A stretch of DNA of 64,000 bases from Eledone cirrhosa (taxonomy: Eukaryota): positions 25,048,001-25,112,000 of the forward strand of contig OZ024742.1 of assembly GCA_964016885.1 (NCBI GenBank), read 5' to 3'. The notes under the pieces were generated by a model, which was not told the DNA's origin, searched no databases, and saw nothing but the letters and a program-made list of their open reading frames with translations. Shown piece by piece: positions 27,955 through 60,591 of the stretch (its first letter is position 1; each line of letters opens with the position of its first letter). The position numbers were made by a program, and so were the translations under genes.

Positions 27955-28740
27955 ACTCCTCAAAGATTTAAGACTGGACACCACTAATACATGGATGTGC
28001 CAAGCAGCAGGAGATGAGCGACAACCAAAGATTTGAGACTGGACAGCACTAATACATGGATGTGCCAAGCAGCAGGGGATGAGGGACCCCCAAAGATTTG
28101 AGACTGGACAGCACTGTAATACATGGATGTGCCAAGCAGCAGGGGATGAGGGACCCTCAAGGATTTGAGAATGGACAGCACTGTAATACATGGATGTGCC
28201 AAGCAGCAGGGGATGAGGGACCCCCAAAGATTTGAGACTGAACAGCACTAATACATGGATGTGCCAAGCAGCAGGGGATGAGGGACCCCCAAAGATTTGA
28301 GACTGAACAGCACTAATACATGGATGTGCCAAGCAGCAGGGGATGAGGGACTCCCAAGGATTTGAGACTGGACAGCACTAATACATGGATGTGCCAAGCA
28401 GCAGGGGATGAGGGACTCCCAAGGATTTGAGACTGGACAGCACTAATACATGGATGTGCCAAGCAGCAGGGGATGAGGGACTCCCAAGGATTTGAGACTG
28501 GACAGCACTAATACATGGATGTGCCAAGCAGCAGGGGATGAGGGACTCCCAAGGATTTGAGACTGGACAGCACTGTAATACATGGATGTGCTAAGCAGCA
28601 GGAAGCTAGAGATACCTAAAGATTTGAGACTGGCCAGCACTGTAATACATTGACATGTGCCAGGCACCGGTGGGAGATGGACCCAAAAGGATTTGTGACT
28701 GGTGTGCACTATAATACATGGCTGTGTGCCAGGCAGCTAA
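27955..28740. repeat. Minisatellite, about 12 units of 65-69 bp
   Basis: atacat motif at 27987, 28052, 28119, 28186, 28251, 28316, 28381, 28446, 28511, 28578, 28645, 28714. Confidence 0.95.
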
Positions 28741-33157: not shown

Positions 33158-33158
<1 letters not shown>

Positions 33159-34060
33159 CCTTTGAAATTTTGAAATTGTTGAATATGAATTGTGCTGCAG
33201 ATTTGATGAATTATAGAACCACACTCAAGGCAGTGTGCGACACTAGATATTGACTTCCGGCCGACCCAGAAGGGGTCACACCCGACTGTGAATGGATTAC
33301 AACCTCCGGATTCAGTAATCTATACGAAAACTACGTGGCGGACATATAAATAACATAACTGTCATTGACAGTTTTAGCCATTTTAGGTGTTTATCGCAGA
33401 CCGCCTATGCAGATAAATCCCCTGGGTATATGTTTTGGAAACATAGTGTTATCTCGCCTAATGCTCAGAACTGGAACCAATGGATGTGGTTCGTAGGGTA
33501 CTGATATGATACGGAGAATCGACCTGTTTCAAGGCGATATAACTGGAGTACACCATCCTTCCTATGGACAATCATACATGTAAAGCTGCACCACCGCTAA
33601 CCAACTTTTCTTCTCACAGACTCATGCTTGCAAGCTCTCTTAATCTATACACCCTGTATTTGCACTGCTTGTGCTTTGATGTATCTATGCTTTGCTTTTT
33701 TTTTTTTTTTTTTTTTTTTTTGATCATGCTGAGTAATACCTTCACTCATTCCTTGCTACCCTCTCCCAACCTCATTATCATCTATTGCACCATTTAAGTG
33801 ATACATTTTTGATGTAATTTTTTATGACATTTTATGACATTGTGTGCATCATGTATTCTGTCTTTTTCTATATAGCGCTGGCCTCGGGACCCCCCTGCTG
33901 GTCCTTTAATCTTGTTCTGGTGACGCAGCTTGATGGAGCATGCAACTATTGATATACTCTTGTTTATTGTTTATAGGCTCTGATGATTCCTGCCATAGGG
34001 TATGGATGAAATACTGTTAGCTAATATTTCTAAACACTCTTTGGTTATTCCTATAATTAT
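33158..34060 (+). mobile_element. Probable 5'-truncated Penelope-like element: ORF tip, structured 3' region and hammerhead, between (TA)n tracts
   Basis: 33158-33253 reads TFEILKLLNMNCAADLMNYRTTLKAVCDTRY*, resembling the EIL..LLN.R.EL...C terminus of PLE proteins; hammerhead at 33976. Confidence 0.5.
33976..34022 (+). ncRNA. Minimal type I hammerhead ribozyme fold
   Basis: ggct-CTGATGA-t tcc..gga t-GAAA-TACT-GTT-agct. Confidence 0.65.
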
Positions 34061-51158: not shown

Positions 51159-54061
51159 AGACAGGGACCCGGTGATTGGAAGCTAAACATGTCGCTCCCA
51201 GCGTATAAAGCCTACAGTAAACGGATTAGCACCTTAGTTAAGTGCCAGTTGACGGGGGCGATCGTCAATAACAGGTGGTGGAGCTCTCTCAAGAGAGCAA
51301 TTAGAATAGAATCGATAGCATTTAGCAAGGAGGTAGCTTTAGAAAAAAAAAAACTGAAAAGGAACTGGTAGCTAAAATAGAAGAGGCACTTAGGAATGGC
51401 AGTACTGCTGACGTGCTAGCGGCGAGAACGGCACTAGACCAGTTCTTCAATGTGAAACACGACGGTTGTATTGTCAGAAGTAGAACACGTGCTCTAAGAA
51501 ACGAGGGAGCCAAAGCTGTTAGCTGGGCCCGAGTGTCAGAGGCGAAAAGTGGCAACACATCCACAATTCGGTCTTTGCAAGACAAAGATGGACGCATTAT
51601 ACTTGAATCCAAGCAGATGTGCGCAGCCTTCCAGCAGCATTTTGCACAACTGTTCGGGCAAAGCGGTACATCGAGCGAGGTGATGGACTTCAGCTCCTAC
51701 CTCGACGACGTACCGCGACTCTCGAGCACGGATGCGGACAGCTGCGAAAGGCCGATCACAGCGGGCGAAATAGAAGATGCCTTAGGCCGCTGCGGGAAAC
51801 GCAAATCACCCGGTTTAGATGGTCTACCCTATGAGTTTTACATAGGCATGCCAGACTTGTTCTCTGGCATCCTCGAAACGGTCTACTGCAACTGGCAGCA
51901 GAACGGGAGGATTCCCAGTTCTGTAGGCAGAGGCGAAGTAATGCTGATCAGGAAAGATGAGAACAAGGGGGATGAGATAAGCAATTTCAGGCCCATAACT
52001 CTGCTCAACACAGAGTTAAAGATTTTGGCCAAGGTGTTAGCAGCAAGGCTGGCACTTGTCGTCGAGAACCTGGTAGGAGAAGCCCAAACGTGTGCAATCC
52101 CGACCAGGTCCATACACGATAACCTCCACCTCATGTGATACATCATAGAGAGGGTAGGGTGTAAACCTGGCTTTGGTGGGGCTCTGATCAATTTAGATCA
52201 GTCTAAGGCATTTGATAGGGTCGACCATCAATACTTGGAAGAAGTTCTCAAAGCGGCCAGCTTCGATCCCGTCTTCAGAGGCTAGATCGCTGCCATGCAC
52301 ACCAGCATCTGCTAGGCAGTCAAGGTGAATGGCTACCTATCAGAGCCATTCCAAATCATGCGTTCCATCCGTCAGGGATGCCCTCTCTCCTCCATTCTGT
52401 ATTTATTGACTCTCGAGCCATTACTGCGGAAATTGGAGCTGTTGCAGGGCATCCCGATCGAACCAGGACTGCGGAAAGCAGTGTCGGCCTATGCCGACGA
52501 CATAACCGTAATGGTGTCGAAAACCTCTGAAATCAGGGTAATCGGGAACCTATTACAGGAATACGAAACGTTGACAGGAGCAAGACTCTGTCGGTTTGCA
52601 ACTCGGTACATGGAGAGGCAAACCCATGCCTTCCGACAGTGTCGTTGGACGATGGTGAAATTGCTCGGGGTCTGGTTCTGTCCAGACCTCCAGGTGGACA
52701 AGAACTGGAACGGCGAAGGTGTTTGCACTCACCCAGAAGTGGGCTGAGTGCAAACTCTCCTTGAAAGGTTGAGCGGAGGTGGCGAACACTTACATAGCAT
52801 CCGTCATCTACTACCGCTTGACAGTCGTGCCTTGCCCACGCGAATACCTTACCAAAATGGAACGCCTACTCTTCAAATTCCTCTGGAAGAAACAGGCTCC
52901 ATTGGTGAGGAGATCCATCTGCTATCAACACCCTTCTAACGGAGGGCTGGGCATGCCGTGGCTGATGATGCGCAAACATGCGCTGAGGCTACGCCATCTC
53001 CAGGTATTCCTGACCGGTGAACTGGTGTGGCTGTCGTTTGTGAGACAAGCTTTTCCACAACTCGTCTCACTAACAGAGCTGCAGTCCTGGGTCAAGCGAA
53101 GAGCGAAAATGGGTGCCTGGCACCTCGAGTGCCTACAGGCGCTCACAGCCCTCTACCAAGTGGAAACGCCAATCAGCGGAGACTCCACTACGACATTCTA
53201 TATGGGATTAGTGGAGGATAAGTGCAACGACGCTCTCGGGGAAAATCTAGGCATCGAGGAGGACAAACTGACCAGTCTGCTCGGGAGGACATTCCGTCCA
53301 GGGTCTATTTATAACTTCCAGAGGTCTCTGGCCTGGCAGTGCTACCGAGGAGCTCTACCAGTTCGAGACAAAATCTACAGGCACGGACGCCTGGCAGAGA
53401 TCCTGCCAAAAGGACCTGCTCTAGATGCGAGCAGGACATCGAAACCGTTCTGCACGCAATTGTTCAGTGCCCAGGGGTGACCGACCTGTGGAATTATGTC
53501 GAACAGCTGCTGTCATGTGTGGGACGCATCCAGTTGTCAGCCGAGTCCATCGTTTAAGAACGAAGGAGAGGCGGTTTTCCTCTATCTGGTGGCTATGGCG
53601 AAAGAGGTAATATGGTGGACGAGATTAAAAGGACTGAGGGCAAACACCTTTCTCTCCGGACAACAACTTATCCCCTTCTTTAAGTATCACTTCAGAAGGA
53701 AAGTGAGAGTGGAGAGAGAGGTGCTACACCCCAGTAAATTGGCTGAAAGGTGGGTGAATGTGGCGAAAATGGCCCGAGTGGATGGGCCTTCACTGTATAT
53801 AAACCTGTAGGTTGAGGAAGATAAACAGAGAGAAGACAGGAACACCTACAAAACGTGTTCCTGGTGTTGAGGGTTGTTCTATCCATGGGGTGTAAAACAA
53901 CCCTGCAGTAACATTCCCCCCTACTGGGGATTTCAATTGTTATTTTATTATATATAGTTTATTGTTATTTATTAATGTTAAAGTTATTTTTATGTAAAAC
54001 CCCCTCCGTCACGTCTTGTAATGTCCCATTTTTGTACGCCCCTGTCGCAAATAAAGAAAGA
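51159..54061 (+). mobile_element. 5'-truncated Tx1/L1-clade non-LTR retrotransposon, pseudogenised ORF2, 16-bp TSD
   Basis: KSPGLDGLP.EFY, FRPITLLN.E.KILAK, DQSKAFDRV, RQGCPLS, YADD, GGLG, CSRC..ETVLHAIVQC; AATAAA at the end; tatctatataaacaat at 51143-51158 and 54062-54077. Confidence 0.92.
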
Positions 54062-55045: not shown

Positions 55046-55308
55046 ATCATCATCATCATCGTTTAACGTCCATCTTCCACGCTTGCATGGGTTTGGACGG
55101 GAGTTTTCCTTGAGGCAAGATTGGTTGTCCTGCTCGTATAGGACTGTCTGGCGGGTTTTCTACGGTTGGATGCCCTTCCTAACACCAACCACGTTTACAG
55201 TGTGGACTGGGAGGTTTTTACCGTGTTACCTACACGGCCACATTAAAGCGTGGACTGTGTGTTTTTTTTGTCGTGACACCTACACGACCTCATTTGTTTC
55301 GGACTGGA
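55046..55308 (-). mobile_element. 3' UTR-only fragment of the RTE LINE
   Basis: Reverse complement of about 57953-58219. Confidence 0.9.
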
Positions 55309-55323
55309 TATATATGTATATAT

Positions 55324-58219
55324 CGGCTCCAGAATCCTGGAAATCTGTGACGTAAATAACCTAACTATCTGTAACACTAACTTCAAAAAACGAGACAATC
55401 ACTTGATCACCTACAGATCAGGGGAACATACCAGCCAGGTAGATTATATCCTCACCAGAAGACGTGACAGAGTGTCTGTTGTAAACACTAAATCCCTCCC
55501 CCATGAAGAATGCACCTCCTAACATAGACTGATAATTAGCGACCTCATAGTCAGGACGAGACGTACTCGAAAACAGAAGAGGACTTTCCTCAGGAGAAAA
55601 ATATGGAAGCTAAAGGACCCCACAACCAGAAATAAATTTAAAAGCATATTACTTGATGCTTTCGACAGTAAGGAAGAGCATTTAGAGTCGTACAATATAG
55701 AGGAACAGTGGGAATTTCCTGAAAGAAAACCTGCTGATGTCGGCAGACGAAGTCTGTGGCTGGAGCAGGCCTATAGGCAGGAGGAGAGTAACGTGGTGGT
55801 GGAACAGTAAGGTGGAGGAGTCAATTAAAGCCAAAAAGCAGGCTTGGAAAGTATGGCGAGATGGGGGAAGTAGAGAAGACTATCAAGTGGCCAGGAGGGA
55901 AGCTAGGAGACAAGTGTACTTCGCAAGAACTGAAGCAGAGGAAAGAAAGTTCAAGCATGTTCTACAACGCGAGGACCAAAAACGTGAGGTGTTCAGGATT
56001 GCTGGGAAATGTGTCAAGGAAAACCGTGATATTGTCGGGGAGACGTGTGTCCTTAATGATGATGGTGTACTTGCCATCACTGACCTGATAGGAAGGTAGC
56101 ATGGAAGTGTCACTACGAAAGGCTACTAAATGAGGAGAATAAATGGGAGAAAGACAGTCTCCCCCACATCGATCCAATAGAGGGACCAACAGAGTTAGTC
56201 GAAGGTGGTATAATAAATAAGGCAATCAAAGATATGAAGACGGGTAAGGCGGCTGGGCCTTCGGAAATAGTTGCTGAAATGCTGAAAGCTTCTGGAACGG
56301 TGGGACACACCATGGTCACTCGGATAGTAAACCAAGTCATACAGAATGGGGTCGTTCCGAAGGACTGGCATAGCAGCATCATCATTAACTGCTACAATGG
56401 TAAAGGAGATGCCCTAGATATGGGTAACTATAGAGGCATTAAATTAATCGACCAGGTCATGAAGGTCACAGAAAAAGTAATAGCGCAACTAATCAGAGAG
56501 AGAATTGATCTAGATGAAATGCAGTTCGGGTTTGTGTCAGGTAAAAGTACCACAGACGCTCTTTTCATTGTACGACAACTACAGGAGAAGTACCTAGCTA
56601 AAAGTAAACCCCTATACTTAGCTTTTGTTGACTTGGAGAAAGCCTTCGACAGAGTCCCCCGTTACATTATCTGGTGGGCTCTTAGAAAACTAGATGTTGA
56701 TGAATGGCTTGTGAGAGCTATACAATCATGTATAAAGAAACAGTCAGCAAGGTTAGAATTAACAACGAATATAGTGAAGAGTTTAGCGTAAAAGTTGGTG
56801 TTCATCAGGGCTCCGTTCTTAGCCCCCTACTATTTATTATTGCCCTTCAGGCTATAACAGTGGAGTTCAAGACCGGCTGCCCATGGGAACTCCTATACGC
56901 AGATTATCTAACGCTCATAGCTGAATCAATGTCTGAACTAGAGAAGAAATTCCAAACATGGAAGCATGGTCTAGAATCAAAAGACCTTAAAATTAACCTG
57001 TCTAAGACTAAAGTTCTAGTTTGTAGGAAGGAAAATAGGGCACTGGTCCCATCCGTGTGTAGGAAAGGAGTAGGTAAAAACTCCATTTTATGTCCCAAAT
57101 GCAAAGTATGGGTGCATAAAAGATGTAGTGGGATCACAGGTAAGCTAACTAAGAACATAGATTTTATATGTGGCCGGTGCTCTGGTGCAATAAGTAGCAG
57201 CAAGTGCCCACAGAATACGAGCTCATTCCATTGCACAGATGGTTCTATAGAAATAGTGGACACCTTCCGTTACTTGGGTGACAAAATCAGCAGTGGTGGA
57301 GGGTGCTCTGAAAGTACAGTAGCTAGAGTCAGAACTGGATGGAAAAGGTTCAGAGAGCTTAAACCACTATTAGCCGCTAAAGGGTTCTCTCTAAAAATGA
57401 AAGGCAGGCTGTATGATGCCTGAGTACGAACAACAATGTTACATGGCAGTGAGACCTGGGCATTGTGTGCAGAGGATATACGCAGACTGGAGAGGAACGA
57501 AGCTTGCATGCCCCGCTGGATGTGTAATAGTAATATACGTGAATGGCAAAGCATAAACGATCTAAGGGAAAAATTAGAAATAAGAGGGATCAGATGTTGT
57601 TTACTCGAGAGAAGACTACGTTGGTATGGTCACGTGATGCGCATGAAAGACGACAGCTGTATAACAAAGTGCAGGGCAATAAAGATAGATGGTAGCCACG
57701 GAGTAGGCAGACCCAGAAAAACATGGGACGACTTGATAAATTCCGACCTCACACACTTACACCTCTCCAAGACAATGTCACTGGACCGAGATCTTTGGCG
57801 CTACACAGTAATACAGAAGACCCGCCTTACCTAAGTACAAAGTGAAACCTACTACATTCAGTTGGCCCCTCTAACAAAATACACCCCCATCCCACTACCC
57901 CCACCCCATCCACACCACCCCTTTCAATGTAAAGTTATGTTGGTACCACAACATCCAGTCCGAAACAAATGAGGTCGTGTAGGTGTCACGACAAAAAAAC
58001 ACACAGTCCACGCTGTAATGTGGCCGTGTAGGTAACACGGTAAAAACCTCCCAGTCCACACTGTAAACGTGGTTGGTGTTAGGAAGGGCATCCAGCCGTA
58101 GAAATCCCGCCAGACAGTCCTATGCGAGCAAGACAACCACTCTTGCTTCAAGTGGGAAAACTCCCGTCCAAACCCATGCAAGCGTGGAAGATGGACGTTA
58201 AACGATGATGATGATGATG
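55324..58219 (+). mobile_element. 5'-truncated, multiply disrupted RTE LINE, same subfamily as 37749-40855
   Basis: Collinear peptides over four ORF pieces with stops and frameshifts; (GAT)n tail then (TA)n. Confidence 0.93.
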
Positions 58220-58262
<43 letters not shown>

Positions 58263-58499
58263 GTGTGTGTGTGTAAAAGTTTTATTTAAATTGTTGGGAT
58301 ACAACAACCAAATATTTTTATAACTGATATAAAGCACTCAACAAATATTTGGAGTAAAAATAAGATATTAACAAATGGAAACTATATTTATAAAACCATA
58401 TTTATTTCATTATACATATTCCAAGGACACCAAGTTAAATTATGGTGTGCTTTCATCAGATAAAATATAATATAGATCAGTTTTATAAATAAATATTGA

Positions 58500-59600
58500 C
58501 ATACCCTTAAAGAATGCAACCATTGGAGAAATACAAAGTAGCAAATAAAGACGACCTTGAAAAATTGAATACAGATGCCTCTTATATAATGCATGAACTA
58601 AGCATTGAAAATAGGACACAACCCTTCACGCCAAGGAAACCTAAGATTAATATGAAGGATCATAAAAGGAACTTCGAAACTGATTTACCAGTCAGATTAA
58701 TTGCACCATCTAAATCGGAGTTTGGCAGACTTAGCAAAAATATTCTAGACAGAATAATACCACACATTAAGAATTTATCTTATTTAAAATTATGGAAAGG
58801 AACTAGTTAAGTTATCGATTGGTTTAAAGATATTAAATATAACTATAATAATAAGTTTATTCAGTTGGATATTGCTAACTATTACTCATCTATCACTCCT
58901 AATCTACTGAATAAAGCACTAACTTACGCATTTAAACATACAGACCTAATTAGCAATGAAATGCACATTATATTATTCGCACGGAAAACATTACTAGAAT
59001 TTAATAACCAACTCTGGACTAGGGCAGATAGAAATAATAATTTCGATATAACTATGGGATCATCCGATTCCGTTCAGGTAACGGATCTTGTGGGCCTATT
59101 TATAATTAATTCTCTACATAGAAAAATACCTGAGATAACCGGAGGTTTATATCGTGCCGACATGCTTTTATAGAAAATAATAACTGTGAACTAAATAGAA
59201 AAAGAAAACAAATTATACAATTGTTTAATTACCTTAATCTAAAAGTAGAAATAGAGAATAACCATAAAATAGTTAACTTTCTAGATGTAACACTAAATCT
59301 TAACACATGTCTTCATTATCCATTTCACAAACTAAATGAGAACTTAAAATATGTCAATTTTAACTCTAATCACCCCAGATCCGTTAAAAATACAATACTG
59401 AACTCTGTACAAGAACGAATTTCGAGAATTTCAGCTAATAAGAATATATTTGATGAAAAAGCACATTATTACAACGAAGCGTTAGGTAGAGCTGGGTATA
59501 GAAATAAAATTAAATACATCGATAATAATAATAATATAACAACTAACCATAATCGTAACAATTTTAACTATGGTAACAATTTTCACAACTATAATAGAAA
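58500..59600 (+). pseudogene. Penelope-like element reverse transcriptase remnant (possibly Naiad-type); no GIY-YIG domain seen
   Basis: KDHK..PVRLI.P.KSE.G.LSK.ILD, DIANYYSSI, FDITMGS.D...DLVG, GLYRAD (degenerate YxDD), VNFLDVTL, YVNFNSNHP; stops and frameshifts. Confidence 0.85.
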
Positions 59601-59607
59601 ACCTTAC

Positions 59608-60147
59608 ATATATACATACTACTGTACGTCTGTATACATATATGTATGTACGTGTACATACTTATATTTAAGTAACAGCCGTACTAAGAGTGGGAAATGA
59701 AATTTCGTTTCATTATTTCCGTTTATCGTTTTCGGTGCACCCGGCCGATTAACCCACTCGATATGCAAATTGGGCTACTCAGCCGTTAATATGCATAAGG
59801 TAAGTATATACGTTCAACAATCTGGCAGGAAGGTATACGTTGCTGACGATAGCTAATAAGCTTGAAACTAGTACAGCGTTCCTTTGTCAGTGTTGAACAA
59901 ACGAGCAACAATGGTTGCTAGATACTACGGCTTAATACGGGATGCTTGTTTACAAACACACCGAGCATTATAATAAATGTTTGGTGAATCCATACGTACA
60001 TATATATATGTGTGCATGTATGTATATATATATATACATACTACTGTACGTCTGTATCCATATATGTATGTACGTGTATATACTTATATTTAAGTAACAG
60101 CCGTACTAAGAGTGGGAAATGAAATTTCGTTTTATTTTTTCCGTTTA
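59608..60147 (+). repeat. Partial tandem repeat, period 422 bp (pseudo-LTR-like)
   Basis: catactactgtacg..tttccgtttat begins at 59615 and 60037. Confidence 0.9.
59812..59898 (+). ncRNA. Type I hammerhead ribozyme fold with extended stem I
   Basis: acgttg-CTGACGA-t agct aata agct t-GAAAC-TA-GTA-cagcgt; stem I continues aagg/cctt, ctggca/tgtcag, gttcaaca/tgttgaac. Confidence 0.85.
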
Positions 60148-60187
60148 TATATATATATATATGTATATGTATATATATCTATATATA

Positions 60188-60273
<86 letters not shown>

Positions 60274-60357
60274 TATATATAGATATATATACATATACAT
60301 ATATATATATATATAAACGGAAAAAATGAAACGAAATTTCATTTCCCACTCTTAGTA
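60104..60357. repeat. 254-bp near-perfect palindrome centred on (TA)n
   Basis: ORFs 60119..60316(+) and 60145..60342(-) translate identically; one mismatch seen. Confidence 0.92.
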
Positions 60358-60396
60358 ACTGTTGAAAATTGCAAACTCGACTGTCACCACATATTA

Positions 60397-60435
60397 TGAA
60401 CCTGAAGATTGCGAAAGCATGAAAGTACTTGTTCA
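60397..60435 (+). ncRNA. Minimal type I hammerhead ribozyme fold
   Basis: tgaac-CTGAAGA-t tgc gaaa gca t-GAAAG-TA-CTT-gttca. Confidence 0.8.
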
Positions 60436-60547
60436 ATTAACACTTAGAATTTAATATTCTATCATACTATTTCATTATAATACCATTATATATTTTAAAG
60501 GATTGTAAATAAAACGAGTAAATCAGACAAAGTTGGAATTCCTCTTA

Positions 60548-60591
<44 letters not shown>

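Follow-up and report, generated by a model that had tools for sequence, protein, structure and literature searches.

We read, with moderate confidence, the 422-bp unit that follows a Hydra-like Penelope RT relic as a defunct copy of a retroelement of the retrozyme-like, non-autonomous type, which is separate from this RT. The window (the whole stretch of 64,000 nucleotides analysed) holds both in the order given in Table 1. The retrozyme-like reading is favoured because the unit is non-coding, has a GC content of 37%, is strongly self-paired and carries a hammerhead with canonical helix sizes. An active retrozyme copy is by definition a tandem of at least two units, each with a hammerhead, and the locus shows one family member of approximately 1.3 units with one hammerhead. 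Hence, we regard the unit as a retrozyme-like solo copy and not as a proven member; solo monomers are a recognised class of retrozymes (here and below, published work is cited from partial texts).

Table 1. Features of the locus (positions within the window; a dot marks features given without strand).
Feature	Position	Strand	Remarks
(AT)n(GT)n microsatellite	58220-58275	.	Left flank of the Penelope-like insertion
Likely inverted, 5'-truncated pseudo-LTR	58276-58510	-	Hammerhead and motif; single copy in the window
TTGAGTGCT, variant of the Hydra-locus motif	58333-58341	-	70 nt after the hammerhead cut
Decayed type I hammerhead	58403-58467	-	Core from 58459; relaxed scan
Hydra-like Penelope RT relic	58511-59604	+	tblastn homology, frame analysis
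Asn-rich linker of the RT relic	59521-59604	+	28 codons, 46% N
Partial unit copy, repeat 1	59608-59726	+	Left edge inside the unit's own TA run
422-bp monomer	59727-60148	+	Non-coding, 36.7% GC, ends on (TA)n
Octamer ATGCAAAT	59763-59770	+	In predicted hairpin arm formed by 59762-67 and 59792-97 (P 0.97)
Donor-like AG/GTAAGT	59798-59805	+	Candidate acceptors 59828 (29 nt) and 59890 (91 nt)
Type I hammerhead of the unit	59812-59898	+	Core CTGACGA 59843-49, GAAA 59864-67
TA/TG-rich long hairpin in the unit	59992-60077	+	19+6+10 bp, predicted
Repeat 2, 3' end of the unit	60030-60148	+	Copy of 59608-59726
Interrupted (TA)n tract, right flank	60149-60312	.	Interruptions mirrored about the centre
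Terminal 45 bp of the unit, inverted	60313-60357	-	Part of the palindrome 60104-60357
Segment of ~190 bp with second hammerhead	60358-60550	+	Core 60402, helix I 5 bp; ends on (TA)n

Judged from its homology, the RT relic is a truncated relic of a Hydra-like Penelope family that is cut at both ends. Its stretch 58511-59523 was aligned by tblastn with homologous proteins (P0003, E 6e-81; P0005, E 2e-80) at approximately 35-52% identity, and the protein search yielded 1661 matches at E <= 0.001 among 1.84 billion representatives; Pfam recognised no frame of the relic. One stop (58808-10) and one frameshift (~59170) interrupt the frame, and the catalytic YRDD has become YRAD. The alignment to Hydra-like proteins needs no insertion, i.e. 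there is no insertion-in-fingers domain, as in Hydra-type RTs, and the motifs agree by eye with the published Hydra alignment of PMC8557442. In a quick tree of 45 rows, composed of the relic and the fetched proteins of at least 400 aa, all Hydra-like and without outgroup or labelled references, the relic fell within a 9-row subgroup (SH-aLRT 100); the RT phylogeny proposed as a check in the preliminary description thus placed the relic in this subgroup, which is all that such a tree shows. The relic begins at about residue 145-150 of the full-length homologs, so that ~145 N-terminal residues with the RWK/DKT region are missing, which is present in sister proteins such as P0007 and P0009. At the other end, the Asn-rich linker in which the RT had been reported to stop was confirmed downstream of the tblastn-supported relic; the copy ends 79 residues past the NHP motif of the thumb and does not reach WFNPP.

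A long polar linker was found in 5 of the 6 measured proteins of the relic's subgroup (53-67 residues in P0005, P0007, P0008, P0010 and P0011; 16 in P0009). The sister proteins carry RW, DKT and CxCX5C, the last of which is the linker motif of the Hydra clade (PMC8557442) and occurs in 14 of the 20 fetched homologs of at least 600 aa, with CxCX4-7C in 18 of them. The CxCX5C linker and the C-terminal GIY-YIG endonuclease of the RT are absent from the window, in which 17 C-terminal queries gave no endonuclease or linker homology (best E 0.16), nor did the profile (best E 0.029). Since the close homologs continue through a long linker to WFNPP and three of them (P0005, P0007 and P0008) run on into the endonuclease, the copy is truncated, and a naturally endonuclease-free family was rejected. 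At the 5' side a candidate was discarded, namely 'SSDK' at ~58453 as the DKT motif of the RT: the match was not above shuffles and its bases are those of the minus-strand hammerhead core. Over its 357 codons the relic contains 1 stop, where a divergence of 1.7% would lead one to expect 0.6-0.8 and a divergence of 5% 1.8-2.5, and it has changes in 4 of 49 conserved columns (baseline 4.6%).

The unit itself is delimited by a direct repeat. The sequence 59608-59726 recurs at 60030-60148, at an offset of 422 and with 4 mismatches in 119 bp, and BLAST extended the repeat to 122 bp (E 4e-52), a little more than the ~110 bp that had been noticed to return 422 bp further on. The right end of the unit adjoins (TA)n. 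The left edge falls within the TA run of the unit itself and may be a deletion breakpoint; microhomology at this site could have terminated the copy or determined where a deletion occurred. No stop-to-stop ORF of at least 60 aa lies wholly inside the monomer, and its 422 nt slightly exceed the ~170-400 nt reported for retrozymes. A MITE with 45-bp inverted ends was rejected, as the 45-mer belongs to the 119-bp direct repeat. No match to the unit was detected in phage records or in six fetched Hydra loci (L001-L006), which are Hydra-like Penelope elements with (TA)n flanks in contigs labelled bacterial MAGs, likely representing contamination by animal host DNA. Five of six unit-derived motifs were absent from the supplement of PMC8557442 as far as it was available, and the sixth gave a chance match inside an ORF.

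The non-microsatellite core of the unit (59672-59992) folds much better than expected (z -4.2, 0 of 100 shuffles), also when the hammerhead is held fixed (z -4.0). For comparison, five Hydra 3' regions reached z-values from -1.2 to +0.5, and only 1 of 37 background windows, a 321-nt window at 52400, reached z -4 (12 shuffles each). As a circle, the unit is 70% paired with z -7.3, a value inflated by the TA hairpin. In the predicted fold a helix near both monomer ends connects 59754-59 with 60110-15 (P 0.99), and two further helices link the repeated with the unique part of the unit (7 bp, P 0.96; 6 bp, P 0.99). Helices spanning the junction (6 of 200 shuffles) also form within the linear monomer and therefore are no proof of circularity. 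The pairing between repeated and unique parts makes them look like one RNA and argues against the assumption that the 119-bp repeat arose by duplication at the DNA level or represents a target-site duplication of unusual length round a 300-bp insert. We regard this as very improbable, although the neighbouring sequence (60104-60357) is a local inverted duplication and the TA/TG sequence within the repeat is prone to slippage.

The hammerhead considered best supported in the preliminary description, with a stem I of about 24 bp, was borne out with an intact core and a helix I of 8+6+4+6 = 24 bp, the proximal part of which has 6 bp. Helix II comprises 4 bp on a U.U pair with an AAUA loop, helix III has 4 nt (palindrome ACUAGU), and the cut is predicted after GUA at 59873. 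These helix sizes fit the canonical metazoan type I hammerhead, which is described with a helix I of 6 bp, a helix II of 4 bp and a short palindromic helix III (PMC4209133). U1.7 is unpaired at 59880 and loop 2 ends in A, both of which fit the contact described in PMC11875169; however, the U.U pair replaces G10.1-C11.1, and the contact between loop 1 and loop 2 is a putative one. The same U.U base of helix II has been described for axolotl retrozymes, and 14 of 25 Hydra hammerheads have it as well. The hammerhead fold is better than that of most shuffles (z -3.2, 2 of 200), and a descriptor scan returned 3 hammerhead sites in the window compared to a mean of 0.06 in 100 shuffles. The support from Rfam was weak: it gave no hammerhead match in the whole-window scan, and with 131 nt alone it reported Hammerhead_HH9 at 19.7 bits (E 0.0075), far short of the gathering score of 52, which was outscored by a miRNA model on the same 131 nt (22.6 bits). 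Helix III has a pair probability of 0.0 in the monomer fold, whereas the duplex between two copies amounts to -6.8 kcal/mol; hence, the model predicts that the unit RNA would be cleaved as a dimer. The short helix III also separates the unit from most Hydra hammerheads, in which it measures 7-8 nt in 25 of 25 families (our own count in the supplement of PMC8557442) and in all five ORF-linked hammerheads of L002-L006 (L001 had none). However, a 4-nt helix III is not unique to retrozymes, because another hammerhead of L003 (6326, minus) shares this length.

Upstream of the ribozyme, the octamer and the donor-like site announced in the preliminary description are both present, but they are weak and represent leads without a demonstrated role. 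The window contains 7 instances of the octamer ATGCAAAT, which also arose in 176 of 5000 unit shuffles (3.5%) and thus is not clearly above chance; AGGTAAGT occurs twice in the window and in 34 of 5000 shuffles (0.7%). An octamer is a part of snRNA-type promoters. Such a promoter belongs to newt satellite 2, as cited in PMC2220036, which resembles the unit in being a hammerhead repeat with a possible internal promoter, whereas the octamer of the unit is embedded in a predicted hairpin arm and is not clearly more frequent than expected by chance. Regarding the donor-like site, the acceptor at 59828 would leave an intron that is too short, and the one at 59890, with a branch-like CTAAT and a pyrimidine-rich CAG, would mark an intron of 91 nt round the ribozyme core. 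The strict intron pattern was found in 2 of 5000 shuffles and the loose one in 70 of 2000, with both patterns set post hoc; moreover, the intron-like signals coincide with ribozyme helices, the pyrimidine tract being the 3' arm of helix I. We consider it highly unlikely that the ribozyme resides inside a 91-nt spliceosomal intron (59800-59890), in which case splicing and self-cleavage would compete. An intron together with a hammerhead is known from the pseudo-LTR of the Drosophila virilis Penelope element (PMC4209133), which shares with the unit the arrangement of a donor or donor-like site upstream of a hammerhead with small palindromic helix III. However, the intron of D. virilis Penelope stops at the 5' side of helix I; the matching acceptor in the unit is the one giving 29 nt, and the longer candidate encloses the ribozyme.

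The 5' side of the RT relic bears on the question of whether the unit belongs to this RT. There, a segment of 235 bp (58276-58510) stands head-to-head with the RT start and has its 3' end on the left microsatellite; from this geometry, it likely represents the inverted pseudo-LTR of the RT's own element. Penelope elements are characterised by such a copy, inverted and 5'-truncated, at their 5' side, and inverted copies exist in 3 of the 6 fetched Hydra loci (L001, L003 and L005). The segment contains a decayed minus-strand hammerhead with 9 of 10 bp in helix II, a helix I of 8 bp, GGAA in place of GAAA and a 6-nt helix III, which is an imperfect fit to the 7-8 nt of Hydra elements. At matching thresholds none of 100 shuffles contained such a site, although its overall fold is not significant (z -1.5), and the predicted cut is situated 135 nt from the microsatellite. 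The segment's protein (ORF) homology was not above shuffles. It also contains a variant of the motif T(T/A)GAGC(A/G)CT. Of the ORF-linked Hydra hammerheads, 4 of 5 (L002, L004, L005 and L006) have this motif 55-67 nt past the cut, corresponding to 4 of 9 of all locus hammerheads, and it is visible too in three published Hydra consensus sequences. This motif is possibly an RT-binding or promoter signal; the available part of PMC8557442 contained no mention of it. The variant TTGAGTGCT has an expectation of 0.0025 in a 40-nt slot, with the pattern widened after the fact, and it is missing after the other three hammerheads of the window and from the 422-bp unit.

No similarity was found between the inverted segment and the unit (score 27 compared to 24+-4, with 60 of 300 shuffles as high). 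Because an inverted Hydra-like terminal segment dissimilar to the unit is already present at the 5' side of the RT, the unit is disfavoured as pseudo-LTR of this element and is likely not the terminal repeat of the neighbouring Hydra-like RT. When tested as a Hydra pseudo-LTR, it showed a 4-nt helix III and no similarity to 58276-58515. One can nevertheless imagine that the unit is the RT's own pseudo-LTR, which came to lie against the linker after an internal deletion had removed the endonuclease: it is on the same strand, directly adjoins the relic, and the decay of both parts is compatible (1 stop per 357 codons, 4 differences per 119 bp of repeat). However, the inverted segment is the better candidate, while the unit lacks T(T/A)GAGC(A/G)CT and has a helix III of non-Hydra length, which leaves this origin with only a slim chance. 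The pseudo-LTR comparison covers Hydra elements. As a whole, the locus resembles the Hydra-clade elements of PMC8557442 in its RT motifs, the (TA)n target and the inverted 5' hammerhead copy, and it differs in that the relic has neither N-terminus nor endonuclease. Hydra-1_Obim of Octopus bimaculoides appears by eye to be another family, and its hammerhead is unlike that of the locus.

Another possibility is that the unit represents the 3' end, i.e. the pseudo-LTR, of a different autonomous Penelope-like family, with two 5'-truncated cDNAs of ~120 and 422 bp in tandem, for which no circle is needed. Partial tandems and hammerheads are standard in pseudo-LTRs, a terminal repeat without hammerhead exists in L004, and the donor upstream of the hammerhead recalls the D. 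virilis Penelope intron. Furthermore, the distance from stop codon to hammerhead is ~80-194 nt in the Hydra loci, so that an ORF could end just upstream of 59727. On the other hand, the whole unit folds with z of about -4, its 24-bp helix I contrasts with the short one of minimal PLE hammerheads, and a random truncation need not respect the helix between 59754-59 and 60110-15. We consider such an origin rather unlikely.

The region to the right of the unit is occupied by a palindrome of 254 bp (60104-60357), which is centred on the (TA)n tract, shows 98% identity and has mirrored interruptions; fold-back duplication, self-priming and an assembly effect are alternative explanations. Since the interruptions of the TA tract are mirrored too, the inverted 45-bp copy is not independent of the unit, and it may be due to a local inverted duplication or to tail-to-tail self-priming. 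An interpretation of 60313-60357 as a second insertion with fixed ends was rejected, as 6 of 6 G/C interruptions are mirrored. The segment 60358-60550 is joined to this inverted copy of the unit's end. It is not similar to the unit, the score being reached by 104 of 300 shuffles, and its hammerhead core (60402) has no Rfam match. We also rejected this segment as the lost 3' end of the RT: endonuclease homology was not found, and 113 of 300 shuffles matched the score against the inverted segment.

The unit shares several characters with the metazoan non-LTR retrozymes (PMC7229834), which are non-coding, have a GC content below 45%, a type I hammerhead and strong self-pairing, and are organised as repeats associated with Penelope-like elements. 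With the axolotl retrozymes it additionally shares the U.U at the base of helix II. Reported sizes are 350-390 bp in mussel and 330-350 bp in axolotl (PMC7229834; bioRxiv 10.64898/2026.07.22.740005). The unit differs in its ~1.3 copies with one hammerhead, its length of 422 nt, a TA/TG hairpin of ~90 nt and the donor-like site. It has been proposed that the template for reverse transcription is a circle, which is copied round, or a tandem, which is copied along (PMC4209133, PMC7229834), and ~1.3 copies fit such a process; internal initiation has been shown for a Poseidon element (PMC11167929). However, the autonomous, ORF-bearing Hydra locus L004 displays the same layout, with a hammerhead-free terminal repeat of 66 bp round its ORF, and the left edge of the unit may be a deletion breakpoint. 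Hence, 1.3 copies are no proof of a circle. Of the two origins named in the preliminary description, the retrozyme-like one is thus favoured and the pseudo-LTR of this RT disfavoured, whereas the 1.3 copies, then taken as what copying round a circular or tandem RNA would leave, are not diagnostic.

According to the history that we propose for a retrozyme-like unit, the Hydra-like element would have inserted into a TA/TG microsatellite, with an inverted pseudo-LTR and a 5'-truncated ORF. Because it has one hammerhead only, the locus would be unable to release a monomer alone; the RNA would stem from tandem master copies transcribed elsewhere, in which two hammerheads pair via the palindromic helix III and cut after GUA, and the monomer would then be circularised by ligation. 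The (TA)n target would be nicked by an RT-endonuclease of Penelope type, which would start synthesis at the unit's 3' end (60148) and continue beyond a full lap, ~1.3 times round. Within the unit's TA run the copy likely stopped, or it was cut there afterwards, and at this point it would be joined to the linker of the Hydra-like element. The 3' part of the RT would have been replaced by the unit through a deletion at or after a separate insertion, or through a template switch in one event; the endonuclease and the direct pseudo-LTR of the Hydra-like element would have been lost, leaving the RT core and 58276-58510.

The last of these options concerns only the junction and overlaps with the retrozyme-like reading. 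In that case, unit and RT would be one chimeric cDNA, for which the Hydra RT was primed on the unit RNA at (TA)n, ran 1.3 laps and, within the linker, switched template to the mRNA of the RT itself. Microsatellites enclose the entire stretch 58276-60148, the ages of both parts are compatible considering the changes in conserved RT columns (4 of 49, against 4.6% as baseline) together with the stop and repeat counts given above, and template jumps have been proposed for Penelope elements. However, the same picture would result if target-site DNA had been deleted during a subsequent insertion or if a deletion had followed afterwards, the age estimates do not have the resolution to tell these scenarios apart, and the inverted hammerhead has 2-3 changes compared to none in the core of the unit. 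We regard a chimeric cDNA as doubtful, and its more specific form, a fossil cDNA made by a Hydra-clade Penelope RT on a circular 422-nt retrozyme RNA followed by a jump to its own mRNA, as distinctly unlikely. Such a fossil cDNA, if real, would identify the enzyme by which an animal retrozyme is mobilised in trans, without shared terminal sequence.

The surroundings have the character of animal intergenic DNA, with many microsatellites and decayed LINEs. An RTE-like LINE relic (~55310-58220) with a PHD-like finger in its RT frame ends just left of the Penelope insertion; its 3' tail (57950-58220, plus strand) is found inverted at 55046-55309 (minus strand; 96% over 267 bp), and many further tail copies are scattered across the window. 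A GC-rich, decayed LINE-type RT region recognised by eye at ~52000-53810 (plus strand) holds the 321-nt window at 52400 with z < -4. At 27961-28726 a 65-bp tandem repeat of 11.6 copies with 91% matches is located, in which the hammerhead scans found no site. A third hammerhead-like core at 33980 (plus strand), with a helix I of 4 bp and a weak fold, lies near the right end of 33158-34060, a stretch of ~900 bp bounded by (TA)n tracts, in which neither ORF homology nor similarity to the unit was seen. Altogether, four hammerhead-like cores of unlike sequence are present in the 64 kb, three of them within 2.2 kb.

In the literature searched (titles and abstract openings), no cephalopod retrozyme was described. 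The retrozyme as a kind of element is already known, and what is new here is the decayed minus-strand hammerhead (58459) head-to-head with the RT start. Apart from the pairing of unit and RT, there is nothing unusual about the locus, in which decayed Penelope-related insertions are clustered in (TA)n. Penelope-like elements have been proposed to mobilise animal retrozymes, an assumption based, in the literature consulted, on co-occurrence and pseudo-LTR similarity, and the retrozyme-like unit joined to a Hydra-like RT provides a specific pairing with which this can be tested.
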